Shown: positions 1-13,150, counted from the first letter of the stretch. The stretch is DNA of 37,225 nt from an uncultured bacterium (GCA_964342905.1 CAYFIG010000001.1:1-37225), one strand, 5' to 3'. The notes: a model not told the origin generated them from the letters alone. Numbers and translations: made by a program.

Positions 1-42
1 CGAACTGCCGGCTTCCACCCGCGCAACAGCCCGCATCAGCAT
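1..42 (-). CDS. 5' end of an unidentified gene following gvpN (partial, runs off window)
   Basis: ATG at 42-40 is preceded by GGAGGTGG (55-48) 8 nt upstream. Only 14 codons are visible (MLMRAVARVEAGSS), so the product cannot be identified. An alternative ATG overlaps the gvpN stop at 58-56. Confidence 0.25.
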   Translation of the reverse strand, partial: MLMRAVARVEAGSS

Positions 43-57
43 CGAGTCCACCTCCCA

Positions 58-972
58 TCAGCAGTACTGCCTGACAAACTTCTTCACCAGCTCCCTGACC
101 TTGGCCTGGTTGCTCTTGCTCCCCACCCGGCTGGTCTCGGAGGCCAGGATGTCCCGGCAGACCTGCTGGAAGACCGCGCTGGACCCCTTGACGTGACCAT
201 TCAGCACCGTGAGAGATTTGGCGATCATGATCGCGCCGCGAACGGTGGGGGTGAACTCGCAGACGCCGGACTCCCGGAGAGCCCGGACGACCTTGACGAT
301 CTTCGCCGCGTCCTTCCGCAGAAGGCCGGACTTCGCCAGGACGATGGCTATCTCCGTCTCCTCATCGAAGTGATCCAGGTCCATCGTGATCATCCGGTCG
401 CGGAGGGCATCCTGACTCCGATGCACCCCGGCATACTCCTCGGGGTTCGAGGTGAAGAGGGCCGTGAAGTTCGGATCCACCCTGAGATAGCTCTCGTCTC
501 CCCCCCGGCCGACAGGGAGGTCCATCATCCGCTCCTGGAGGATGGAGAGGAGGATGTTATTCGCCTCAGGCCGGGAGCGGGTGAACTCGTCATAGATGAG
601 GGTGAAGCCGTACTTGCAGGCGACGGTGAGGCGGTTATCCACCCACCGTTTGACCATGTCCTCTTCGACTTTCAGGACCCGGGAGACAAAGCGGTCGATG
701 ACCTTCCTCAGGTGATAACCGTACTCACCTCCAACCAGGTTCGAGGTCGTGAACTCCTCGTCGCCGTGGATCATCACTACCGGGCGCTTGAGCTTGCTCG
801 CCACGTGGAGGGCCAGGGTGGTTTTCCCCGTGCCGGAGGCCCCGCGGAAGTGGACCGGGAACCCCGCCTTGCTATAGCCCAGGGCCCGCTCGGTCAGGTC
901 TTTGACGAACTTTGTCTCCACAAAATCCGGCAGAGGGGTGGGCTCGAGGATCGTGGTGAGTTCCTCAATCAT
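58..972 (-). CDS. gvpN: gas vesicle protein GvpN (AAA+ ATPase, MoxR/CbbQ-like)
   Basis: 304-aa ORF with Walker A GASGTGKT. Length and overall sequence look like the GvpN family. It is co-directional with and downstream of gvpA. Confidence 0.9.
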   Translation of the reverse strand: MIEELTTILEPTPLPDFVETKFVKDLTERALGYSKAGFPVHFRGASGTGKTTLALHVASKLKRPVVMIHGDEEFTTSNLVGGEYGYHLRKVIDRFVSRVLKVEEDMVKRWVDNRLTVACKYGFTLIYDEFTRSRPEANNILLSILQERMMDLPVGRGGDESYLRVDPNFTALFTSNPEEYAGVHRSQDALRDRMITMDLDHFDEETEIAIVLAKSGLLRKDAAKIVKVVRALRESGVCEFTPTVRGAIMIAKSLTVLNGHVKGSSAVFQQVCRDILASETSRVGSKSNQAKVRELVKKFVRQYC

Positions 973-981
973 GGTTGCCTC

Positions 982-1320
982 CTACACGAGAAGGACAGCG
1001 CGAGGGGTGAGCACGCCTCTCCCGCGGCAGTGAGTGCAGGGGAGGCCGCTCCCTAGGGTCCGTCCGCTCCCGTGGCAATCAGGACATGACTTCCCGGGAC
1101 CACCGGGGGTCACAACTCCCCTCCCACCACAGACCTGGCAGGTGATCCTCGTCCCGTAGGGCTGGACCCCGCTCCCCCGACAGTAGGCACACCGAGCCAC
1201 TGGTTCCTCCATATTGACCGTGCCCTTCCCCAAGCAGACCTGGCACCGGGCCAGGCGCGAGAGGAGGCCGAACGGATCGGACCCCTTCCCCCGGCAGAAC
1301 TCGCACCGCATCGCCGTCAT
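982..1320 (-). CDS. small cysteine-rich protein with six DnaJ-type CxxCxGxG zinc-finger motifs
   Basis: 112-aa ORF containing CEFCRGKG, CQVCLGKG, CAYCRGSG, CQVCGGRG, CPDCHGSG and CTHCRGRG. A purine-rich SD (AGGAAAGGGGGAAGAG) sits directly upstream of the ATG at 1320. The ORF ends 9 nt before the gvpN start. Confidence 0.8.
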   Translation of the reverse strand: MTAMRCEFCRGKGSDPFGLLSRLARCQVCLGKGTVNMEEPVARCAYCRGSGVQPYGTRITCQVCGGRGVVTPGGPGKSCPDCHGSGRTLGSGLPCTHCRGRGVLTPRAVLLV

Positions 1321-1353
1321 CTCTTCCCCCTTTCCTGTTCAGCCTTTGATGTC

Positions 1354-1710
1354 TCAGCGAGCTGGGCCTGCGGCCGTGGACTCCTGGTTCGCGCGTCCCA
1401 TAGGCTCCCTCGCGTCCGCTGGAACATCCCTCATCCAGCCACGGCAACGCAGTTCCACGCGAAGACGAGTCGGCATGGCCTCTGACCAATAGGCGAGGGA
1501 GAACTGATTGCATCCCAGGCTCGTCAACTCTTGCTTCATCTCAGCGACGGGCCGGGCAAGCTGGTCGGCGAGGTCTCCGCCATGAACACCGACTTCCCGC
1601 CAGATCGCCATCTCGCCCCCAATCCCTTGAACAGGCCAAAGCGCGAGGAAGGCGACAAGCATTACCGCCCCCAGCCAGAAAGAAGAACCCCGCACAGCCT
1701 TAAGAGACAT
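1354..1710 (-). CDS. hypothetical small protein with N-terminal hydrophobic (signal/anchor-like) segment
   Basis: 118-aa ORF with hydrophobic stretch FWLGAVMLVAFLALWPV near the N-terminus. Its ATG is embedded in the last codons of the upstream gene (GCG AAT GTC TCT TAA), and GGAGGAGGGGG lies just upstream. I recognise no family. Confidence 0.5.
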   Translation of the reverse strand: MSLKAVRGSSFWLGAVMLVAFLALWPVQGIGGEMAIWREVGVHGGDLADQLARPVAEMKQELTSLGCNQFSLAYWSEAMPTRLRVELRCRGWMRDVPADAREPMGRANQESTAAGPAR

Positions 1711-2308
1711 TCGCCCCCTCCTCCCTTCTCAACTGCGCAGGTGAAGCCAAATCATTCTTGGACCAGCGCCGGGACTGGATGGCGCTGAGGGTAGCCTTGA
1801 ATTCCACGACCCTAACGGAGCTCCCGTTGGAAAGGAGTCCGTGGAGGGCCCGGACCAGCTCGTCCTGCTCGCTTTGGAAGTCAGCCAGGAGGGTCCTGAC
1901 TTCCCGCTCCCGCTCCTCTCGTCTCGCCTCGATCCCTTTCAAGAGTTCCTTGACAGTTCCGATCCGTTCGGCTTCGCCTCTAGCCAGAGCCTCCTTCAGG
2001 GCGGCCGCCAGTGCCCTCTGCTCAGCCAGGTAGTCCTTTATCGTTTCTTTGATCGCCCTCTCGCGCTCCTCTTGGCGGACGAGGATCCCCTCCATCATCG
2101 CGTCGAAGTCCCGCCTCCTCAGAGAAGCGACCCGGGCCAGGGTCTCCCTGAGCTGGGCCCTCATCGCCTCCCGCTGGCGCCGGAAGGTCTCCAGCATTTC
2201 GTGAGTGGCCTCGACAATTCGCTCTACCCACGAGATCCTGGCCTCGTAGGAGGCGATGACCTCCCGGGCCAGGGGCCCCATCTGCTCTGGGACATGAATA
2301 CTTGTCAT
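1700..2308 (-). CDS. coiled-coil, Arg/Glu-rich protein with internal repeats; paralogue of 2333-2794; candidate GvpC-like gas-vesicle accessory protein
   Basis: 202-aa ORF that is strongly helical and charged. The motif GILVRQEERERAIKETIKDYLAEQ recurs as GIEARREEREREVRTLLADFQSEQ. It shares the motif F(D/Q)AM..GI..RQEER.R with the neighbouring 153-aa protein. The start is uncertain (ATG at 2308 or at 2281). Confidence 0.7.
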   Translation of the reverse strand: MTSIHVPEQMGPLAREVIASYEARISWVERIVEATHEMLETFRRQREAMRAQLRETLARVASLRRRDFDAMMEGILVRQEERERAIKETIKDYLAEQRALAAALKEALARGEAERIGTVKELLKGIEARREEREREVRTLLADFQSEQDELVRALHGLLSNGSSVRVVEFKATLSAIQSRRWSKNDLASPAQLRREEGANVS

Positions 2309-2332
2309 TCGTGTTCGTGACTTGTCCTTCCC

Positions 2333-2794
2333 TCAGCGGGCAAGGCCGGCGCGTTTCTTCGCCATCGCAGCGGCCATATGCTGCCAGTGGCCAGAGGCGG
2401 CCTCACGCTCCCGCCAGAAGCCATTCAGCATGCTTGCCATCTCCCTGTTCCTTTCCTCCTGGCGAGCTCTGATGCCCTGATGCATCGCCTGGAACTCCCT
2501 CATCCGGGAAAACGCGGCGTTGCCAAGGAATCGTCTAAGGTCCGCTGCCTTCCGCCTGAGCTCGTGCTGAATATTTTTCATCTCCTGCCGAAAACCCTTC
2601 AGCTTCGCCGCGGTCTCTTGCCTGAGGGCCGCCACCGTTGCCACCCGGGCGTCGAACGAGCTGGCGATCTCCTGGGCCAGGGCCCGCATGTCCTCGGCCA
2701 GTCGCATCGTGCCGAACCTCCCTTCTCGTGAAACTTCCTCCTGCGAGAAGTGGAAAGTCTCAGGAGCCTTCTTTGTTTTTTTCCTGAATACCAT
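2333..2794 (-). CDS. coiled-coil Arg/Glu-rich protein; paralogue of 1700-2308; candidate GvpC-like gas-vesicle accessory protein
   Basis: 153-aa ORF with a strong SD (AGGAGGGAATC) before the ATG at 2794. LAQEIASSFDARV...EFQAMHQGIRARQEERNREMASML aligns with LAREVIASYEARI...DFDAMMEGILVRQEERERAIKETI of the 202-aa protein. Confidence 0.78.
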   Translation of the reverse strand: MVFRKKTKKAPETFHFSQEEVSREGRFGTMRLAEDMRALAQEIASSFDARVATVAALRQETAAKLKGFRQEMKNIQHELRRKAADLRRFLGNAAFSRMREFQAMHQGIRARQEERNREMASMLNGFWREREAASGHWQHMAAAMAKKRAGLAR

Positions 2795-2806
2795 GATTCC
2801 CTCCTG

Positions 2807-2822
2807 GGGCGCTGATGCGCCC
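2807..2822 (-). other. GC hairpin (GGGCGC-AUCA-GCGCCC) abutting the SD of the 153-aa gene
   Basis: Perfect 6-bp G/C stem with a 4-nt loop, ending 1 nt upstream of AGGAGG. It overlaps an 8-nt direct repeat CGCTGATG (2810-2817 and 2822-2829). Confidence 0.35.
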
Positions 2823-2912
2823 GCTGATGTTAGTCAGGAGAGAGATCCTGGCGAGACACGCTCGGCGGTCGTCCGCTCAAGGGTACCCCGGCAGAAACCC
2901 CTCACTGGTCCT

Positions 2913-2939
2913 GGCAGCCGGCCTTACGCCGGCGCTGCC
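2913..2939 (-). other. GC-rich hairpin with the gvpA stop codon in its loop
   Basis: RNA GGCAGC-GC-CGGC-GUAAG-GCCG-GCUGCC gives about 10 bp with a 2-nt bulge. The UAA stop (2926-2924) lies in the loop. No U-tract follows. Confidence 0.35.
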
Positions 2940-3139
2940 GCCGTGGCGGTCAGGCCGATGGCCTCGGCGTACTTCAGGTACGTCTCGACTGAGGCCACCA
3001 CTACCCGGGCCTCGATGGCCAGAAGCTCGATCCCCACCAGGGAGAGACGAACCCAGGCATCGATGACCACGCCCTTATCCAGGATCCGGTCGACCACTTC
3101 CACCAGGCTGGACGACGCGATTGCCTTCTCTACTGCCAT
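2924..3139 (-). CDS. gvpA: major gas vesicle structural protein GvpA
   Basis: 71 aa: [64 protein letters not shown]... This is the near-invariant GvpA core. I place the start at the ATG at 3139 rather than the GTG at 3145 used in the track. The SD AGGAGGTGA lies upstream. Confidence 0.97.
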
Positions 3140-3146
3140 GCTCACC

Positions 3147-3578
3147 TCACCTCCTTTCTGTTTGCCCCTCAGGGCCGCTGCCTACCGGCTCGAGCGAGGG
3201 GCTTTCTAGGCCCTCTTTGACGACCCGCCTCAAGAGGGCCGCCACCTGGTCCAGTTCAAAGGGCTTCGAGATGAAGCCTTGATACGCGCCGCGCTGGATC
3301 CCCTCTTGGATCGGCGGATCCGCCCCGTAGTGGTAGCCCGAGATCACCACAATCGGGAGCCGGGGGGCGAGCTGCCGGATGGTGTGCGAGACCTCGAGGC
3401 CGCTCTTGCCAGGGAGCTTGACGTCGATGATGGCCACATCAAAGCTCCGCTCCCCCACCGCCTGGATCGCGTCCTCGCCCCGGTGGGCTTGGGTGATGTG
3501 CACCCCGTCGTCCGCCAGGCCCTTCTCTAGGGCCCAGCAGACGTCCTTCTCGTCGTCCACGACGAGGATTTCAAGCAT
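3147..3578 (-). CDS. single-domain CheY-like response regulator (receiver only)
   Basis: 143 aa with the acidic pocket VVDDEKD, phospho-acceptor context [11 protein letters not shown], plus VVISGY and SKPF. There is no output domain. Its last codons (AGG AGG TGA) form the SD of gvpA, which starts 7 nt after the stop. Confidence 0.92.
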
Positions 3579-5076
3579 CCGGCCTCTCCGCCGGAAGGAT
3601 GACAGTAAAGGTGGAACCCCTACCCACCTCGCTCTCCACCCGGATCGTGCCGCCGTGCTGTTGGACGATGCTGTAGGCGATGGAGAGGCCCAGCCCCGTG
3701 CCTTTCCCCGCCGGCATGGTCGTGAAGAAGGGGGTGAAGATGCGGGGAAGGTGCTCCTCGGAGATCCCGCACCCGGTGTCGGCGAAGCTGACCTCGATCC
3801 ACGCCTGGTAATCAGGCGGGGCGAGCCCGGTCTCTACGGTGAGCCGACCGCCTTCGGGCATGGCATGATAAGCGTTCAGCATGATGTTCATGAAGACCTG
3901 TTGGAGCAGGTTTTTGTTGCCTCTCACCCCCGGGAGCTCCGGGGCCAGGCGCTTTTCTATCTCAATGGACTGAAGGGAGATCTGATGGCCGATGAGGGAG
4001 AGGGCGTCTTCGATGGCGCCGTTGATGTCCACCCGCTCCACCATTCCCTCCGAGGGGCGGGCGAACCGGAGGAGGGTTTCGATGATGGCGCCGGCCCGGT
4101 TGGCGGCTGTGTGGATCTTCTCGGAGCACTCGCGCCGGACGCCGGGGTCATCCGCCTTCTTCAGGAGAATCTGGGCGGCGGAGGAGATGATGGCCAGGGG
4201 GTTCCGGATCTCGTGGGCGATGCCGCCGGCCATCTCCCCGAGGGCGGCCATCTTGGCCGACTGGATCAACCGGAGTTCCAGCTGTCGCTTCTCCGTCAGG
4301 TCCCGCCCCACCCCCACCAAGGCCACCACCCGCCCGCCCGCGTCCCGCATGGCTGAAAACCGCCAGGAGATGAGGAGCTCCTCGCCACCTTTCGCCCTCA
4401 TCCGGGTCTCCAGCTCCTGGACTCTCCCTTCCCGAGCCAGCTCGGCGAGGAGGGCCTGGAGGTGGGGCCGGTCGGCCTCCAACGAGAACTCGGCAATCTG
4501 CCTCCGCTCCACCTCCTGGGGTGAGAACCCCAGGATCCGGGCGGCGGCCCTGTTCCAGGTCATCACCGCGCCGGTCGGATCCAGGGAGACGATCAGGTCG
4601 TTGGCGCTCTCCACGACGCTGGCCAGGTGGCGTTCGGCGTCTCTCGCTCGGTCGCCCAGGTTCTTTTTCTCCGTCACATCGTCCATGAAGAGCATTACCC
4701 TCGCTACCCGCCCGTTCCCATCCTTCAGGGGAGCCAGGCTGTAGAAATAGATGCGGGCGGTCAGCCCCGGAGCTCGGTACTCCACCTCCCCGCCCTCGAA
4801 TGGCCTGCCGGTCTGGTACACATCCCGGATCTGCTCCTCCAGGCCGGTATACGAGAGGATGACAGGCGGGAAGACCTCGCTGATCCGCTCCCCGAGCACC
4901 GCCCCTTCCTGTTTCCTCAACTTGGAAAGAAAGTTCCGGTTAGCAAAGGTCACCCTCAGGGCGCTGTCGAGGATCAGGATGGAGGAGGGAATATGGGTGA
5001 GAATGTCCGTGTGGAAGTTCTGCTCACCTGCGTCCGGGACGGTCACGTCGCCGACGGCCCCGCTTTGCCTCTTCAC
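3571..5076 (-). CDS. soluble PAS-domain sensor histidine kinase (PAS-PAS-HisKA-HATPase_c)
   Basis: H-box AHEIRNPLAII, N-box MNIMLNAYHAM, G1 FADTGCGI, G2 GKGTGLGLSIAY. Two PAS-like regions, and no hydrophobic transmembrane segments. The 3' end overlaps the response-regulator start by 8 nt. The TTG at 5181 used in the track lies inside a sigma54 promoter, so I prefer the GTG at 5076 (SD AAGGAGAAGG at 5094-5085). The ATG at 5154 is an alternative. Confidence 0.88.
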   Translation of the reverse strand: MKRQSGAVGDVTVPDAGEQNFHTDILTHIPSSILILDSALRVTFANRNFLSKLRKQEGAVLGERISEVFPPVILSYTGLEEQIRDVYQTGRPFEGGEVEYRAPGLTARIYFYSLAPLKDGNGRVARVMLFMDDVTEKKNLGDRARDAERHLASVVESANDLIVSLDPTGAVMTWNRAAARILGFSPQEVERRQIAEFSLEADRPHLQALLAELAREGRVQELETRMRAKGGEELLISWRFSAMRDAGGRVVALVGVGRDLTEKRQLELRLIQSAKMAALGEMAGGIAHEIRNPLAIISSAAQILLKKADDPGVRRECSEKIHTAANRAGAIIETLLRFARPSEGMVERVDINGAIEDALSLIGHQISLQSIEIEKRLAPELPGVRGNKNLLQQVFMNIMLNAYHAMPEGGRLTVETGLAPPDYQAWIEVSFADTGCGISEEHLPRIFTPFFTTMPAGKGTGLGLSIAYSIVQQHGGTIRVESEVGRGSTFTVILPAERPDA

Positions 5077-5177
5077 GCTGGTTGCCTTCTCCTTCGGGGG
5101 CAATGGACAGGCCCCCCGGCACTTGCGGGAGAGAACTTCGTTGTGCGAGTGCATCGATCTACACGTGCAGAAGAGGG

Positions 5178-5192
5178 GCAAGGTTTATGCCA
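5178..5192 (-). promoter_or_regulatory. sigma54 (-24/-12) promoter upstream of the HK-RR-gvpA operon
   Basis: The minus strand reads TGGCAT-AAACC-TTGC, against the consensus TGGCAC-N5-TTGC. The GG and GC dinucleotides are at the exact spacing. It lies in the 312-nt gap between the sigma54 activator gene and the kinase gene. Confidence 0.65.
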
Positions 5193-5240
5193 GGCGCTCG
5201 GGGAGACCACACGACCCCTCACTTGCCCGGCGGCAGCCAG

Positions 5241-5280
5241 ATATGCAAGAGATGTATGAGAATATGTATGAGACAAGAGA
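5241..5280. repeat. AT-rich island of about 12-nt direct repeats (ATATGCAAGAGA / TGTATGAGA / ATATGTATGAGA / CAAGAGA)
   Basis: ATGTATGAGA occurs at 5252-5261 and again at 5264-5273, with degenerate copies flanking them. The island sits about 50-90 nt upstream of the -24 element. Confidence 0.5.
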
Positions 5281-5316
5281 AACCTGGTGAAATTCCCTCT
5301 GGGCGCCCGACCAGAA

Positions 5317-5350
5317 CTATGGCAACAACTCCCTGGGCCGGATGCCATAG
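5317..5350. promoter_or_regulatory. 8-bp perfect inverted repeat CTATGGCA-N18-TGCCATAG; candidate enhancer (UAS) for the sigma54 activator
   Basis: The arms at 5317-5324 and 5343-5350 are exact reverse complements. The repeat is roughly 125-160 nt upstream of the -24 element at 5192. Confidence 0.4.
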
Positions 5351-5493
5351 CAGCGCGGGCTGGACGGGGGGCGATCGGAGAAGTGTGAAGAGGACGGTCA
5401 GGAGGGTGAGGAAGTCTTGGACCTTCTGCTCATGTCGCTTCGTAATTCTTCAAACCGGCGCTCATGTCATTGGAGGATCCTTGCCCGGCCACG

Positions 5494-6891
5494 TCACGAC
5501 GCCAGGAACTCCTGAGTCAAGATGCCGTAGCGCTTCATCTTAAGGTGCAGGGTCTTATAGTCGGTCTTGAGGACCCGGGCCGCCTCGCTCTTGTTACCTT
5601 TGGTGGCCTCGAGGGCCAGGCGGATCACCTGCCGCTCCGCCTCAGCGATGGCCGTTTTCCTCGTTTCTTTCAGGGAGAGACCCACCGCTCCGGGCCCCCA
5701 CTCTGCGGCTGAAGGTGCCCCCAGAGATCCGGCCCCCAGGGCCGCGAGATGCTCCGGCCTGATCACATCCGGGCTCAGCAGGACAGTCCTGCGAATGGCG
5801 TTCCTGAGTTCGCGAGCGTTGCCCGGCCAGGGATGGTCGAGGAGAAACTGGGCTGCCTCCTCTGATAGCCCCCGCACCGGCCGCTTTAGCTCCATGCTGG
5901 CTTCTTCCAGAAAGCGCTTGGCCAAGTAGAGGATGTCTTCCTTCCGCGCCCGGAGGGGCGGAAGGGTGATGGCGAACTCGTTCAGGCGGTAGTAGAGGTC
6001 CTGCCTGAACCGGCCGGCTCGCATCTCCTTCTCCAGCGGGAGGTTGGAGGCGGCGATGATCCGCACGTCCACCGAGACCGTGCGTTTGGCACCCAGGGGC
6101 TGCACCCGTCGCTCCTGCAGGACCCGCAGGAGCTTCGACTGGGTGGTCAACGGGAGGTTAACGATCTCGTCGAGGAAGAAGCTTCCCCCCTCGGCAAGGT
6201 GAAAATGGCCCTCCTTCTTCCTGTCGGCACCGGTAAAGGCCCCTTTCTCGTAGCCGAACAGCTCCGACTCGATCAGCGTCTCGGGGATGGCCCCGCAGTC
6301 CAGGGCGATGAAGGGGTTCTCGTGTCGGGCGCTCTGCTGGTGGATAGCCCGGGCCACCAGTTCCTTGCCCGTTCCCGTCTCCCCCTGGATGAGGACGGTA
6401 AAGGTCGACCCAGCCACCTGCCTCACCTGCTGGATGACCTTTTGGATCTCCGGAGTCCGACCCATCAACTCCCCGAGGGAGCCACCCGCGCCGAGCTGAC
6501 TCCTGAGCGCCTCGAGCTCGGCCAGCAGCGCCTGCCGCTCGAGGGCCTGCCGCACGGTCAGGATGATCTGATCGTTGTGAAACGGCTTGGTGAGGAAGTC
6601 GTAAGCCCCCAGCCGGAGGGCCTGGACCGCTGCGGGGATGTCCCCGTAGGCCGTGAGCATGATCACCGGAAGTGCGGGAGCGATCACCTTGAGCTTGGCG
6701 AGAGTCTCCATCCCGTCGAGCCCTGGCATCTTGAGATCCAGGATGACGGCTGCGGGAGCCTCCGCCAGGACCCGGTCCAGGGCGGCCTGGCCGTCCTCCG
6801 CCTCGACTACCTCGAACCCTTCGACGCAGAGCACCTCCGCCAAGAGCCAGCGCATATCGGCTACGTCATCAACCACCAGGATCTTTGGCAT
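5494..6891 (-). CDS. NtrC-family sigma54-dependent response regulator (REC + AAA+ sigma54-interaction + Fis-type HTH)
   Basis: 465 aa counted from MPKILVVDD. Walker A GETGTGKE, sigma54-contact loop GAFTGA, and C-terminal HTH GNKSEAARVLKTDYKTLHLKMKRYGI. The 26-codon N-terminal extension in the track overlaps the upstream gene and is not REC-like. Confidence 0.93.
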   Translation of the reverse strand: MPKILVVDDVADMRWLLAEVLCVEGFEVVEAEDGQAALDRVLAEAPAAVILDLKMPGLDGMETLAKLKVIAPALPVIMLTAYGDIPAAVQALRLGAYDFLTKPFHNDQIILTVRQALERQALLAELEALRSQLGAGGSLGELMGRTPEIQKVIQQVRQVAGSTFTVLIQGETGTGKELVARAIHQQSARHENPFIALDCGAIPETLIESELFGYEKGAFTGADRKKEGHFHLAEGGSFFLDEIVNLPLTTQSKLLRVLQERRVQPLGAKRTVSVDVRIIAASNLPLEKEMRAGRFRQDLYYRLNEFAITLPPLRARKEDILYLAKRFLEEASMELKRPVRGLSEEAAQFLLDHPWPGNARELRNAIRRTVLLSPDVIRPEHLAALGAGSLGAPSAAEWGPGAVGLSLKETRKTAIAEAERQVIRLALEATKGNKSEAARVLKTDYKTLHLKMKRYGILTQEFLAS

Positions 6892-7558
6892 TTTTGCCCG
6901 GCTCCTGTCCGGTGCTTCCCGACGTCTCAAGATCCAGCATCGGTCCGACTCCCGGGTGGAACGTGGCAACGGGCTCGACGATAGCGGAAAGCCGCCGAAT
7001 CACCTGGGTGATTCGCTCGCAGCGTTCGAGGATGACCTTTACCCTCTCGACAGCCTTCGCTTCCCTCAGCTCTCTCTCCAGCATCTCGGCGTGGCCAACG
7101 ATAGCGGCCAGAGGGTTATTAATCTCGTGGCTCAGCGCACGCGCCGCCTCCAGGAGGGTCGCAACCTTGGCGGCCCTGAGGGACGCTGCTTCCAGATCCC
7201 TCTTTTCCAACGCCCTTCTCACGGTGAAGACGATCTCGTCGTTGTCAAACGGCTTGGTGAGGAAGTCGTAGGCCCCCAGCCGGAGGGCCTGGACGGCGGA
7301 GGGCAGATCGCCATAGGCAGTGACGATCACGACGAGCATATGGGGAGCCACCGCCCTTGCCTGCTCCAGAACCTGGATGCCTTCGAGCCCCGGCATCCTA
7401 AGATCTAGGAGGACCACGTCCGGGGGCTCGCGCGTGATCTGCTCGAGGGCAGCCTGGCCGTCCTCTGCCGCGACCACCTGGAAACCCTGATCTCGGAGCA
7501 CACCCGTCAGGAGCCAGCGCATGTCGGGCTCGTCATCCGCCACTAGCGCTTTCGGCAT
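6869..7558 (-). CDS. receiver domain fused to a HisKA/DHp domain, with no HATPase_c catalytic domain
   Basis: 229 aa. The REC domain (MPKALVADDE...TKPF) is followed by the H-box ALSHEINNPLAAIVGHAEML and about 60 further residues, with no N/G1/G2 boxes. The REC domain is paralogous to the REC of the next gene. Confidence 0.85.
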   Translation of the reverse strand: MPKALVADDEPDMRWLLTGVLRDQGFQVVAAEDGQAALEQITREPPDVVLLDLRMPGLEGIQVLEQARAVAPHMLVVIVTAYGDLPSAVQALRLGAYDFLTKPFDNDEIVFTVRRALEKRDLEAASLRAAKVATLLEAARALSHEINNPLAAIVGHAEMLERELREAKAVERVKVILERCERITQVIRRLSAIVEPVATFHPGVGPMLDLETSGSTGQEPGKNAKDPGG

Positions 7559-7822
7559 TGCCAGCTTCGTTATCCCACCCGGGCCTGAACGCTCTTAGGA
7601 ACCATGGCCGGAGAAAAGCGATGAATCAGCTTTCGTGTGCCCGCTGGCTTTCTACAATCGAAGATGCGAACGAGGTGAAACCGAGCGGGGGCTGCCACCC
7701 AGCTCGAACGGAATCACCGATACGCTCGTCATCGGGGTAAGATTCGGGCATCAACCGATGACAGCCCTACTACCTCACGTGGCTACTCCCTTCCCTTAAA
7801 CGATGAATTTCTCGGGGAGAAC

Positions 7823-7846
7823 GAAAAAGACAGACGGAGACCGTCT
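7823..7846 (-). terminator. intrinsic-terminator-like hairpin plus U-tract
   Basis: The minus-strand RNA reads AGACGG-UCU-CCGUCU followed by GUCUUUUUCGUUCU. That is a 6-bp stem with a 3-nt loop and a U-rich tail. The upstream segments GGAGAC and UCUGG can pair alternatively with GUCUCC and CCAGA. Confidence 0.45.
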
Positions 7847-7945
7847 CTGGAAAACCGCGAGTCTCCAGACCGGGAGCGTTGGTCGTGAACCGGTTTCGTG
7901 GTTTCCACCAACGAATGTGCAAAGTCGGTTTCGCCAAACGCTACC

Positions 7946-7960
7946 GCAAGCTCCGTGCCA
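7946..7960 (-). promoter_or_regulatory. sigma54 (-24/-12) promoter, exact consensus match
   Basis: The minus strand reads TGGCACG-GAGC-TTGC, which equals the consensus TGGCACG-N4-TTGC. It is about 390 nt upstream of the REC-DHp gene start (7558) and about 100 nt upstream of the hairpin at 7823-7846. Confidence 0.7.
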
Positions 7961-8164
7961 AATCCCAAGCACCCCGCTTGCGCAGCAGTTCCGAGTAATA
8001 AAGGAGGTCTCTAGCGCCTGCCGCGTCTCCCATAGAGGCCAGAAGGCCCTTCAGTCTGCCACTTCGAATCAGCGCGTCATAGCTGGGAGTGGCGGGCAGC
8101 CTGGCCGGTTAAGCCTTTTTGCCGGAAGGGACCATTCGCGTTGTCACTTCATTCAATTTTTCTT

Positions 8165-8194
8165 TTTTATCCACTTTTCCCCGTGGCTTGTCAA
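8165..8194 (-). promoter_or_regulatory. sigma70-like promoter (TTGACA-N18-ATAAAA with TGn extended -10)
   Basis: The minus strand has TTGACA (8194-8189), an 18-nt spacer ending in TGG, then ATAAAA (8170-8165). It lies in an AT-rich patch of the non-coding gap. No convincing ORF follows. Confidence 0.3.
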
Positions 8195-8596
8195 GGGCCA
8201 GGCGAGAGGCGTCCGTTGAGAAATTAGAAATAGGGGTCGAGGTTCCGTTGCACGCTTCTTCTCGGAGCCCCTCCAAGCTGAAAAAGTGGACGCGTCTACG
8301 GGCACGGGAGCGCGAAGACAACCCTACAAACCCTTTCATCGCCGCCCCCGGTCCTGCACCGGCTCCGGTGCCGGCAGGCCTTGCGCTGCGCCCGACCGCC
8401 GGATGGAACACCGGGCCTCGGCGATTCCGATCCCTCCCACACACTCTCTTTCCGAAAAAGGGAAGCAATTACAAAGCCAATACGAGTAGCGTTCCACGTG
8501 TTTACGTGAAGTGGTTGATTATCTGGCTTTACTTCGGGCTCAGGGGGGGGAGGAGGTTCCGACTTGAATTCAACGAAAATCCCGCGCTGGAGGTGT

Positions 8597-9715
8597 TTAG
8601 AGCGTCCGATAGAGGTCGGCAAACGCGCGGACCTGGGACGCGAAGGTGAACGGGCGGACAGCGGCGCGCGCGCGCTCAGTCATGAGGGCCGGTTCAGCGT
8701 TTCTGAGCGCCTCCAGCCCGTTGGCGATGGCCGCAGGATCTTCGGGGTTCTCGAGGATCCAGCCGGTCTCGTCGTGACTTACGACTTCAGCCCCGCCGCT
8801 CCTTCCGCTCGCCAGGACCGGGAGCCCCGCGGCCAAGGCCTCGAGGTGGACATTGCCAAAGGGCTCATAGAGAGAGGGGAGGGCGACCACATCCGCCGCG
8901 GCGTAGAAGCGTTCCACGTCGGGGCGCGACCCGGCCCAAGCCAGACGTCCTGCGACGCCAAGTCGCTCGGCGACGGCGCGATAGGGCCCTGGACTCCCCT
9001 TCCCGACCACCAGGAGCCATGCGCCGCGGCCGCGGAATCTGGCGAATCCCTCGATGAGGGGACCCAGGCCCTTCCGCTCGAACCCCGAACCGACCATGAG
9101 GATGACCCAGGCATCCCTCGGGATCCCGAACTCGGCCCGGATCGCCGGACCGAACCGCTTCCGGTGATCCGGATGAAAGCGCTCCTGATCCACGCCGTTG
9201 TAAATCACCGTGAGCCGGGACTCGGGCACCCCGTAGAGCCTCCGGATCTCCTCTCGCCCCTGGCGCGAGATGGCAACGATCCTCCGGGTTGAGCCCGAGG
9301 TAAAGATTCTGCGCTCAAGCGACAAGAGCAACAGGTGGGAGGGATTGGCTCGAAGTGCGAGCCGCCTTGCGCTCCCCAGGTGCCGCGCCTTGACTCTAAG
9401 ATAGGCTCGATGGCACCCCTCTCCGGCTCGGTAGATATCCTGCGTGAGGCTCCGTTCGTGGCTCTGAACCACGTCAAAGCGATCCCGCACGACCCCCATG
9501 CGGGCAGCCAGGACGAATGAGATGAGGCGCGCCGGTGGCGGATACGGGATCACTGGGAGTCGGTGAAGCGTCGCTCCCGGGACCGGGAACTGCCCTGGAG
9601 GGCTGAAGAGATGGAGATCGTATCCCTGCCTCACGAACTCCTCGATCAGCCCCGCGGTGGCGTTCTCCAGGCCGCCGTAGAAGACAAACGGACGGCAGAT
9701 GATGGCCACTCTCAC
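8597..9715 (-). CDS. glycosyltransferase family 4, WaaG/RfaG-like (LPS core glycosyltransferase)
   Basis: 372 aa. FVFYGGLENA, DIYRAGEGCHRAYL, MVGSGFERKGL and the E-x7-E region resemble WaaG. This is the last gene of the LPS operon. Confidence 0.85.
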   Translation of the reverse strand: MRVAIICRPFVFYGGLENATAGLIEEFVRQGYDLHLFSPPGQFPVPGATLHRLPVIPYPPPARLISFVLAARMGVVRDRFDVVQSHERSLTQDIYRAGEGCHRAYLRVKARHLGSARRLALRANPSHLLLLSLERRIFTSGSTRRIVAISRQGREEIRRLYGVPESRLTVIYNGVDQERFHPDHRKRFGPAIRAEFGIPRDAWVILMVGSGFERKGLGPLIEGFARFRGRGAWLLVVGKGSPGPYRAVAERLGVAGRLAWAGSRPDVERFYAAADVVALPSLYEPFGNVHLEALAAGLPVLASGRSGGAEVVSHDETGWILENPEDPAAIANGLEALRNAEPALMTERARAAVRPFTFASQVRAFADLYRTL

Positions 9716-11978: not shown

Positions 11979-13150
11979 CGGCCACTCCCCAACCTCTGGT
12001 TGGGGGCCCGCAATCTCCGATTGGGGCCCCGCGGCCTTTGCCGCAGGCGGGCAAGGACGTCGTAGTAAGCGGTCTCCACCGTCTCCACCGCACGCTCAGG
12101 GTTGAACTCACGTTCGGCTCGAAGCCGCCCTGCCGCTCCCATGCGGCGCGCACGCTCAGGGTTCAGAAGGATCTCTCCCAGCGCCCGCGCCACACTTTCT
12201 GGCTGGTCATCGGCAAGGAGCAGGCCGGTCTCCCCATCCAGCACAGTTTCCGGGAGCGCGCCGACGCGGTGGGCAACCACAGGCTTCGCCACGGCCATCG
12301 CCTCCACGGCGGCCCGGCAGGATTCCTCGGAGCCTGCTCCCATGAGGGCAAAGCAGTCCATAGCAGCCAGCAGTTGCGGAAGGTCGGTGTCCCGGTAGCC
12401 GGTGAAGAGGACCCGGTTGCCCAACCCAAGCTCGAACACGCGACGTTCAAGCCTGGGCCGGGACTCTCCCTTCCCAACAAGAAGCAGCCGCGCCTCAGGG
12501 AGCAGCTGGAGGAGCAGGCGGAACCCGTCGATCAAGAGCTCGTGGCCCCGGTTCGGAGCGAGCCGGGCCACCGAGCCGACCACCGGAGCCTCGCCGAGCC
12601 CCAGCTCATCGCGGACCGCCTTGCCGTCCACGTCGGGGGAGAAGCGCCTGAGATCTGTCGCCGCTGACACGAGCCAGACCTGATCCGGTTGAAAGCCAGT
12701 TTCCAGGCTCCGGATTTGGATCTGGCGGCTCACGGCAAAGACGGCGTGAGTCCTCCGCTGAAGCGCCCTGGATAGCCAATCCCGCTTGACGGCCCGGTGG
12801 CTGTGGAACGTTCGGAACAACGCCGCCTGGCCGTGGCAGATGGCACCGAGCCAGTGGTCGTGGGAGTGGTGACAGTGGATGATGTGGACGGTCTCCCGGA
12901 CCACCAGCCGACGGAGGCAACGCATGTCGTGGCAGAACGCTCGCGGCCGAACACGTGGATCGAGGGAGAGATCGGGAAGCAAGGAAATCCCCGCCTCCAG
13001 GGCTTTCGTCTCGAAGCGATCCCCCCGCACAGCCCCGAGCAGGACGCGATGGCCGCGCTCTTCGAGCCCTTTGACGAGGCGGATGATCGGGTCCGCGCTC
13101 CCGGTCCACCAGCGGTTCGCGGCGAGGTGAAGCACCCGGAGGGGCGTCAT
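11975..13150 (-). CDS. glycosyltransferase family 4
   Basis: 391 aa from the ATG at 13150 (MTPLRVLHLAANRWWTGS...), with SVARLAPNRGH and GSEESCRAAVEAMAVAKPVVAHRVG. The GTG at 13183 used in the track lies inside a duplicated segment. Confidence 0.85.
   Translation of the reverse strand: MTPLRVLHLAANRWWTGSADPIIRLVKGLEERGHRVLLGAVRGDRFETKALEAGISLLPDLSLDPRVRPRAFCHDMRCLRRLVVRETVHIIHCHHSHDHWLGAICHGQAALFRTFHSHRAVKRDWLSRALQRRTHAVFAVSRQIQIRSLETGFQPDQVWLVSAATDLRRFSPDVDGKAVRDELGLGEAPVVGSVARLAPNRGHELLIDGFRLLLQLLPEARLLLVGKGESRPRLERRVFELGLGNRVLFTGYRDTDLPQLLAAMDCFALMGAGSEESCRAAVEAMAVAKPVVAHRVGALPETVLDGETGLLLADDQPESVARALGEILLNPERARRMGAAGRLRAEREFNPERAVETVETAYYDVLARLRQRPRGPNRRLRAPNQRLGSGR

Follow-up and report, generated by a model that had tools for sequence, protein, structure and literature searches.

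A candidate sigma-54 control module of the Gvr kind at the head of a gas-vesicle operon, with a kinase-less REC-DHp protein as its probable accessory

The stretch analysed here, called the window, is the whole 37,225 nucleotides (nt) of a contig from an uncultured bacterium (CAYFIG010000001.1). Its minus strand carries, in the order of transcription, genes for a REC-DHp protein (T), an NtrC-type activator (A), a histidine kinase (K2), a single-domain receiver (Y) and the gas-vesicle shell protein GvpA; a fifth signalling gene, K1, is discussed below. On balance we think it probable that a GvrA/GvrB/GvrC-type regulatory region stands here at the head of a gas-vesicle operon, with T added as an accessory that modulates the phosphorylation of A. 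The proposed scheme is as follows. A, phosphorylated on its receiver, would bind a palindromic block upstream of K2 and activate a sigma-54 promoter, P2, from which K2, Y, gvpA and the downstream gvp genes would be transcribed as one unit. K2, which is cytoplasmic and has two PAS domains, would be the sensor kinase, and Y its translationally coupled receiver. A would receive its phosphate straight from K2, the system then being a branched two-component one; in relatives the upstream REC-PAS kinase K1 could feed it instead. As K2 and Y lie downstream of the A-driven P2, they would themselves be under A control, giving positive feedback. T would descend from Rec-controlled histidine kinases, having lost the kinase part; its receiver is paralogous to that of A, and it would be an optional modulator of A phosphorylation rather than an obligatory relay step. 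In this scheme we infer who phosphorylates whom, the binding of A to the palindromic block and the sign of the T effect. A compulsory four-step relay is unlikely.

The original prediction had placed four co-directional signalling genes upstream of gvpA, and all four do lie on the minus strand at the predicted positions (Table 1). Pfam finds in A the domains Response_reg, Sigma54_activat (235.7 bits), AAA_lid_14 and HTH_8, and its translation includes GAFTGA; the NCBIfam scores of A, 418 bits for AtoC and 407 for NtrC, both fall under the equivalog cut-offs. The open reading frame (ORF) of A extends over 5494-6969, the real start probably being the ATG at 6891. K2 has two PAS domains, HisKA and HATPase_c, with the H-box AHEIRNPL. 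Its ORF covers 3571-5181, and the real start is probably a GTG at 5076, which is preceded by GAAGGAGAAGG and agrees with the gene calls in two related loci (L004 and L171). Y gives Response_reg alone. The activator, the soluble double-PAS kinase with a complete core and the stand-alone receiver are thus as predicted. The genes are tightly packed: T and A overlap by 23 nt, K2 and Y by 8 nt, and 7 nt separate the Y stop from the gvpA start. The A gene, 2.4 kb upstream of gvpA, is conserved along with it.

In alignments of eight to nine loci, two conserved islands, P2 and the palindromic block, stand out from an A-K2 spacer that has otherwise diverged. P2 has counterparts with GG-N10-GC at the same place, namely TGGCATAACATTTGCT (L005), TGGCATAACACTTGCT (L174) and TGGCCCAACATTTGCT (L004), and also in clusters that have no T gene, namely TGGCACCACGCTTGCT (L175, L176) and TGGCACTACGCTTGCT (L177). 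The GG and TTGC of P2 are invariant columns (alignments A2 and A5). The block spans 54 base pairs (bp), about 115 bp upstream of P2, and consists of two CTnTGG-N9-CCAGnG palindromes plus an extra GCCATAG half-site. It is the most conserved island of the A-K2 spacer in all of the loci aligned, the T-less clusters included, with CCATA, TCTGG and CCAG as invariant columns (A2, A5). Tandem palindromes upstream of a -24/-12 promoter are the usual activator-site layout for an NtrC-type protein. The motif, searched as CTnTGG-N9-CCAnAG, has no further copies elsewhere in the window. The packing of K2, Y and gvpA leaves no room for an internal promoter, and a scan of window positions 1-9000 found no sigma-70-like promoter. 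The simplest reading is that P2 would drive K2, Y and gvpA through gvpN as one transcription unit. The sigma-54-dependent output of the original prediction is plausible, and the conserved promoter and block tie the module to gas vesicles more firmly than that prediction had argued.

Table 1. Features of the gas-vesicle region of the window, signalling genes and their putative control sites first
Feature	Position	Strand	Description	Evidence
T	7558-6869	minus	REC-DHp protein, 229 amino acids (aa)	Pfam, alignments, AlphaFold2 model, dN/dS (ratio of nonsynonymous to synonymous substitution rates)
A	6891-5494	minus	NtrC-type sigma-54 enhancer-binding protein, 465 aa	Pfam, NCBIfam
K2	5076-3571	minus	Soluble PAS-PAS histidine kinase, about 501 aa from the GTG at 5076	Pfam
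Y	3578-3147	minus	Single-domain CheY-like receiver, 143 aa	Pfam
P2	5192-5177	minus	Predicted sigma-54 (-24/-12) promoter, TGGCATAAACCTTGCC, some 100 nt ahead of the K2 start	
Palindromic block	5350-5297	minus	Candidate upstream activator sequence: CTATGGCATCCGGCCCAGGG, then GCCATAG, then TTCTGGTCGGGCGCCCAGAG	
K1 remnant	7560-7778	minus	About 220 nt: leader, ribosome-binding site, GTG then stops; inverted fragment; last ~100 nt of coding sequence	
P1	7960-7945	minus	Candidate sigma-54 (-24/-12) promoter, TGGCACGGAGCTTGCG, ahead of the T-A pair and originally ahead of K1	
gvpA	3139-2924	minus	Gas-vesicle shell protein	Pfam Gas_vesicle, NCBIfam GvpA
Coiled-coil genes, two, paralogous	2794-2333 and 2308-1700	minus	After gvpA	
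ORF, 118 aa	1710-1354	minus	Hydrophobic N-terminus	
DnaJ-type zinc-finger gene	1320-982	minus	CXXCXGXG protein	
gvpN	972-58	minus	338.7 bits to TIGR02640, passes the cut-off	NCBIfam

The arrangement T-A-K2-Y-gvpA recurs on all of the long contigs examined that extend to gvpA, three independent ones (L001-3, L004 and L005), where gvpA is followed by gvpN, gvpF/L and gvpG, and two more loci (L171 and L174) keep the same order through Y, up to the contig end. T is 67-78% identical across these five. The genomic flanks differ from genome to genome, including urocanase, ABC transporters and AspS, with a lipid A/lipopolysaccharide, BamA and Skp block in the window. Thus, the signalling genes travel with the gvp genes. 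The arrangement is not due to chance, and the co-occurrence with gvp genes on which the original prediction turned is found. Y belongs to a distinct family of about 106 clusters, 47-100% identical, from Rokubacteria, Methylomirabilota, Nitrospirota, Tectomicrobia and others, and it adjoins gvpA in every locus that extends that far. The T family numbers about 31 clusters at the 90% identity level, against about 106 for Y; the distribution of T is patchy. Its members are 57-100% identical, about 230 aa long and intact in frame, and come, where a source is named, from metagenome-assembled genomes of Rokubacteria or Nitrospirae. A scan of genome contigs with KP-loop and H-box patterns from the T alignment was dominated by generic receiver matches; among the 80 loci kept from the matches listed there was no close relative, no locus with gvp genes and no Serratia-type cluster. 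At one locus (L172, 8739-12818) a T of 74% identity is flanked by two other kinases, one REC-HisKA-HATPase_c (421 aa) and the other a REC-PAS-kinase-REC hybrid (696 aa), and no sigma-54 activator is seen up to the contig end. The tight T clade may not, then, be tied exclusively to the activator.

Sister clusters without T are informative. In L175/L176, from Ca. Methylomirabilis limnetica, and in L177/L178, the gene set is K1 and/or A followed by K2, Y and gvpA. Identity to the window is 73-74% for A, 67-70% for K2, 67-69% for Y, 94-97% for GvpA and 86-88% for GvpN, and both P2 and the palindromic block are kept. With A, K2, Y and gvp genes this close, it follows that A can be controlled without T. 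K1 overlaps A directly in L177. An apparent K1-A fusion in L175 (6400-6630, called at 1037/1051 aa) was set aside as evidence for a K1-A partnership, because its linker is a stretch of poly-G/poly-P coding sequence and has the look of an artefact of assembly or sequencing. Good transcription of the M. limnetica gvp cluster during a lake bloom has been reported (Graf et al. 2018, as cited in PMC11008690).

T itself gives two Pfam matches, Response_reg at residues 5-112 (108.6 bits) and HisKA at 137-190 (45 bits), and no HATPase_c. Its key residues are D9, D52, T80 and K102 of the receiver, H144 in the H-box SHEINNPL, and a C-terminal PMLDL motif. It is thus the REC-DHp protein with an intact H-box and no ATP-binding boxes that had been predicted. 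In the AlphaFold2 model (pLDDT 84.7) the receiver is followed by a continuous helix, 106-163, a helix at 167-191, a short beta-hairpin and a disordered end, the last receiver helix running straight on as DHp helix 1. Beyond DHp helix 2 only 38 residues remain. Foldseek and hidden Markov model searches of the PDB matched the receiver part only and returned no solved full-length analogue; in the profile search of the PDB, T matches the receiver-plus-linker structures of NtrC1 and DctD over residues 5-147. A cryptic ATPase domain, which would have spoken against the predicted architecture, is excluded by the Pfam scan, the length after helix 2, the predicted structure and the PDB searches. The PMLDL tail aligns to the first beta-strand of the K1 and K2 catalytic domains, and K102 and H144 are 42 residues, or six heptads, apart. 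T looks like an LvrB-type Rec-controlled kinase minus its catalytic domain. Its receiver is 57% identical to that of A, 38% to that of K1 and 31% to Y, and shares with the A receiver the helix alpha-1 (DMRWLL) and the beta5-alpha5 region; any donor reaching T should therefore also reach A. T has in this the look of a parallel branch, though on this point a fused arrangement like Spo0F-Spo0B is possible too. The DHp is just 26-28% identical to those of K1 and K2. Partners could not be assigned from the DHp specificity residues, as T, K1 and K2 are all small at H+7, H+11 and H+12.

Conservation within T was scored in alignment A4, which holds 44 T-type sequences, 29 of them from the gas-vesicle clade. 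D9, D52, K102 and Asn148 (H+4) are invariant, and T80 and Glu145 are each kept in 43 of the 44. The invariant D9, D52 and K102 and the near-invariant T80 indicate that the receiver is live. Asp209 in the tail is likewise invariant, and in both A4 and A6 the residues L208, D209 and L210 vary little or not at all. His144 is kept in 41 of the 44 and replaced by Asp in three, all in the gas-vesicle clade (3/29); at least two of these changes look independent. One Asp variant sits in an intact K1-T-A context, with the codon GAT in place of CAC. As two bases differ, the change does not come from a read error. Purifying selection acts on T, with dN/dS of 0.14-0.26 for the receiver and 0.27-0.54 for the DHp plus tail. 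In L005 (3852-4544, P0026) the T receiver is 85% identical to that of the window, and the DHp plus tail has drifted to 49%; the H-box there reads DHNIRNPL, with Glu replaced by Asn at H+1. Once K1 was lost, selection on the DHp may have been relaxed or redirected, which would account for this drift.

The kinase-less ending of T is widespread. With its DHp plus tail (residues 122-229, window 6872-7195) as the query, a search of 1.84 billion representative proteins (50% identity clusters) gave 1326 matches at E up to 0.001. Among the 148 best representative matches (P0242-P0389), 114 (77%) stop within 25 residues of the matched region. Ninety-eight of these short-ended matches, each of at least 150 aa, were scanned with Pfam: HisKA was found in 98/98, HATPase_c in 0/98 and SPOB_a in 1/98. 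Their consensus is NHEINNPL...P....Y..G..MLDL. The front domains are REC (32), PAS (about 29) and GAF (18), as well as HAMP, MASE1 and STAS; REC, PAS or GAF domains on a kinase-less DHp are as expected for signal-gated enzymes. The truncation is evidently an old and stable design, judging from its spread over these proteins. More distant REC-DHp members adjoin complete kinases (L007, L009) or MglB/MglA-like genes (L010), and no gvp genes lie nearby in these three loci.

The count of four signalling genes holds for the window and not for most of its T-bearing relatives, which have five. The additional gene, K1, encodes a REC-PAS-HisKA-HATPase_c kinase of about 490-510 aa, directly upstream of T in L001-4, L171, L173 and L174. 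In the window, tblastn with the K1 proteins of L001 and L004 finds no K1 gene in the 1-kb gap upstream of T. What remains is a remnant (Table 1). Its segment 7659-7560 matches the K1 3' end of L171 (blastn, 73.5% over 102 nt, E 1e-8) and also L172, L173, L004, L174 and L001; positions 7734-7676 match K1 in the opposite orientation; translated in frame 0, the remnant ends in VQARVG*, to be compared with VQACVG* in the K1 of L001; and the leader aligns with that of L174. The four-gene set is evidently, on these alignments, a reduced form of the five-gene set. L005 lost K1 in a separate event, an in-frame deletion, and keeps a stub of 116 aa (L005 3527-3877).

These features of T suggest how it could act as a modulator. 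In HisKA kinases, the positions critical for phosphatase activity are H+1, occupied by E/D, and H+4, occupied by T/N; the DHp of EnvZ is still a phosphatase when isolated. T probably takes phosphate from the same donor as A, as a competitor for that donor. Its DHp, gated by the phosphorylation state of T, would probably drain phosphoryl groups from A, acting as a phosphatase or sink, and might possibly shuttle them to A.

Several points weigh against this scheme. The H-box His is invariant in all 98 of the diverse kinase-less relatives and nearly so in the close ones. Such strict conservation predicts a phospho-His intermediate; a pure phosphatase or sink should lose the His more often. The window and L005 both lost K1 and kept T, which leaves A without an adjacent kinase and would fit a T that bridges K2/Y to A. 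A is placed on the block at 5350-5297 by position and conservation only, and the likeness to the Serratia Gvr proteins is a resemblance in domain types and gene context. rpoN is absent from the window. Lastly, no characterised member was found of the family to which T belongs, with its kinase-less DHp and MLDL tail.

The first two of these points favour a relay through His144, and the live receiver of T, its purifying selection and the case of PhyT likewise keep such a relay in view. Two relay schemes can be drawn, one of four steps and one with T as a fused intermediate, and jointly they are a minority possibility. That the T family are true His-phosphotransferases, so that T, after the loss of K1, would deliver to A the phosphate of K2/Y or of its own receiver, is rather doubtful as well. 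In the four-step scheme, like the Spo0 or PhyT pathways, phosphate would pass from K2~P to Y, then to His144 of T, then to the A receiver, with sigma-54 transcription as the output. All four types of part are present with intact phospho-acceptor residues, His144 is conserved as described, and A has no neighbouring kinase in the two loci that lost K1. Spo0B and ChpT are general precedents, and the Pak-SdrG-PhyT-PhyR pathway is another (PMC5898713). Against these stand the sister clusters, which run A, K2, Y and gvp genes without T, and the three gas-vesicle-clade T proteins with Asp for His, one of them in an intact context. In addition, K2 and Y lie downstream of an A-dependent promoter, so that the input would depend on the output, and the fully conserved receiver of T would be left without a role. 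Nor is there a sequence relation to Spo0B, SPOB_a being absent from the T Pfam scan. No fourth regulator is listed for the Serratia set either (PMC4982088). We regard the four-step scheme as improbable. A chain of kinase, receiver, DHp protein and regulator had been proposed as the core logic of the region; this proposal gives way before the T-less clusters, the His-to-Asp variants, the paralogy of the T and A receivers and the ancestral K1.

Lower in our estimate is an action of T by binding. T would form mixed dimers, through its receiver and coiled coil, with the A receiver, holding or releasing it, or through its DHp with K1 or K2. The match of T to NtrC1/DctD receiver-plus-linker structures, the close likeness of the T and A receivers and the persistence of His-to-Asp variants under selection in intact contexts would all suit such dimers, for which DHp heterodimers of the RetS-GacS type are a general precedent. 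However, the near-universal H, E, N, N and P of the H-box across a very broad family point to chemistry, and the low identity of the T DHp to those of K1 and K2 does not favour pairing with them.

Less probable again is the second relay, in which T would be a fused analogue of Spo0F and Spo0B. Here K1, or else K2, would phosphorylate the T receiver, the phosphate would pass to His144 within the dimer and then to the A receiver, and T would add a checkpoint or delay. Spo0F and Spo0A both dock on Spo0B, and the T and A receivers, with their common DHp-contacting helix, could both dock on the T DHp in the same way. The gene order, too, places T between K1 and A, with translational coupling to the latter. 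The six heptads from K102 to H144 fit the rule of helix transmission in Rec-controlled kinases (PMC13269768). But a kinase that reaches the T receiver should reach the nearly identical A surface directly, which makes the relay redundant, and here too the T-less clusters and the His-to-Asp variants weigh against it. That T is a functionless remnant of a truncated Rec-histidine kinase, as its missing catalytic domain and the alignment of its tail to a catalytic-domain strand might suggest, is very improbable in view of the intact frame in about 31 clusters, the dN/dS well below 1 in both halves, the conserved receiver catalytic residues and Asp209, and the same kinase-less ending in at least 98 diverse representative proteins.

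The preferred reading, a Gvr-kind head with T as an optional modulator, takes its model from Serratia sp. ATCC 39006, whose GvrB and GvrC are presumably a kinase and a receiver. The Serratia papers report that GvrA and sigma-54 act at the gvpA1 promoter and that GvrB and GvrC are also required, and they describe the general pattern as conserved across Proteobacteria (PMC4982088, PMC11778176); the original prediction was right to place gvrA-C in the Serratia gas-vesicle cluster (PMC4982088). The two systems have in common an NtrC-family activator, further regulators and gas-vesicle genes all within the gvp cluster, and a -24/-12 promoter ahead of the operon that contains gvpA. They differ in that the kinase and small receiver here stand between promoter and gvpA, whereas those of Serratia are described at the end of a separate sigma-70 operon. 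The nearest named relatives here, Rokubacteria and Methylomirabilota, belong to another phylum, and T, as well as K1 in the relatives, is extra. The region would thus appear to be a GvrA/B/C-like sigma-54 gas-vesicle control module outside the Proteobacteria.

The Bacillus Spo0 relay (KinA, Spo0F, Spo0B, Spo0A) offers the same list of parts, including a kinase-inactive helical-bundle His protein. T, however, is a HisKA-type DHp fused to its own receiver, without the Spo0B-like alpha/beta domain; Pfam gives Response_reg and HisKA alone and no HPt or SPOB_a homology. Moreover, the sister clusters do without T, and some T sequences have another residue in place of the His. PhyT of Sphingomonas melonis would be the best functional analogue for either role of T. 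A kinase-like protein that lacks kinase activity, it was initially taken for a phosphatase; later it proved to transfer phosphate from a single-domain receiver to the output regulator, which it also sequesters (PMC5898713). Unlike T, PhyT is membrane-bound and has no receiver domain, and what it controls is a partner-switching sigma-factor pathway instead of a sigma-54 activator.

In Rec-controlled kinases the linker length is a multiple of seven, and receiver phosphorylation is transmitted through the helix (PMC13269768). T shares with their prototype, LvrB of Leptospira, the N-terminal receiver, the continuous helix into the DHp, the heptad-multiple linker and the intact H-box (PMC13269768). 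It differs in ending soon after DHp helix 2, with no catalytic domain, so that receiver phosphorylation cannot act by releasing one. T also falls in the architecture class of 'HisKA, no HATPase' proteins, or REC-(PAS/GAF)-HisKA regulators, with a conserved His (PMC5847659). Archaeal and bacterial censuses note this class, which appears in P2CS as 'possible incomplete histidine kinase'; Galperin et al. record that phosphatase or phosphotransfer roles have been proposed and that none of its members has been studied (PMC5847659). In contrast to the class at large, the family of T is delimited by the HEINNPL H-box and the MLDL tail, and one clade of it is tied to an easily scored operon.

The significance of the region is twofold. 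Rokubacteria and Methylomirabilota relatives appear to use a similar sigma-54/two-component logic, with a delimited promoter and an activator-site candidate. T is the more useful lead, as a kinase-less DHp clade in an operon with an easy readout, namely buoyancy and refractile vesicles. It makes testable whether kinase-less DHp proteins are phosphatases, phosphate shuttles or decoys, and natural controls are at hand, as clusters differ in whether they carry T, whether they carry K1 and whether the H-box has His or Asp. Gas-vesicle clusters have been expressed heterologously as acoustic reporter genes. Were the His-phosphotransferase reading true, T would be a receiver-fused, HisKA-type equivalent of Spo0B, ChpT or PhyT that controls organelle formation, and in a very large family that has gone unstudied it would be the first member open to experiment.

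A second candidate promoter, P1, has one mismatch to TGGCAC-N5-TTGCW. Similar elements precede the first signalling gene in L001 (TGGCACAGGTCTTGCG) and L173 (TGGCATGCGGCTTGCT), and weaker ones, with TTGA at -12, in L171 and L174. No conserved activator site was found upstream of P1, and because of this its assignment as a sigma-54 promoter is tentative. Autoregulation of P1 by A was considered and dropped on the same ground, and for want of another palindrome copy in the window. About 100 nt downstream of P1, within the old K1 leader, lies a terminator-like hairpin followed by a T-run (7826-7848, minus strand). It can be aligned in part with L174 and has no Rfam match; an attenuator is one possible role, the terminus of a short transcript another. 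Neither the whole window nor 5000-8700, searched at E up to 1, has an Rfam match; the long leader that follows P1 is therefore no known RNA. In two related loci (L004 12081-13750 and L173 4679-5715) a DksA/TraR-type zinc-finger gene and a 123-aa ORF are inserted between activator and K2, behind a duplicated palindromic block and sigma-54 promoter (the L004 promoters being at 12329 and 13681). DksA is named among the factors affecting Serratia gas vesicles (PMC11778176).

GvpA scores 132 bits against an NCBIfam cut-off of 100. The spacer between gvpA and the next gene folds, as RNA, no better than shuffled sequence (z = -1.27). Homologues of the operon genes after gvpA keep their order in L001, L005, L175 and L177. 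The two coiled-coil genes, about 33% identical to each other, occupy the usual gvpC position after gvpA; they are conserved in all of the related clusters and gave sub-threshold Pfam and NCBIfam matches only, with no significant family. The DnaJ-type zinc-finger gene is found also in L005, and in two copies in L175, with no match in L001 or L177. The 118-aa ORF fills a gap of about 380 nt between the second coiled-coil gene and the zinc-finger gene. It has no family match and is an extra in the window, as its flanking genes overlap in L175.

Upstream of the gas-vesicle island and on the same strand, positions 8597-35443 hold an ordinary diderm housekeeping block. Its glycan and lipid A genes are five GT4 glycosyltransferases, a heptosyltransferase, LpxK, KdtA, LpxB, LpxI, and LpxA- and LpxD-like genes. 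The block also includes Skp, BamA, an FtsX/MacB-type permease (LolE-like), LysRS, Lnt and a Clp-family AAA+ ATPase with Clp_N and ClpB_D2-small domains.

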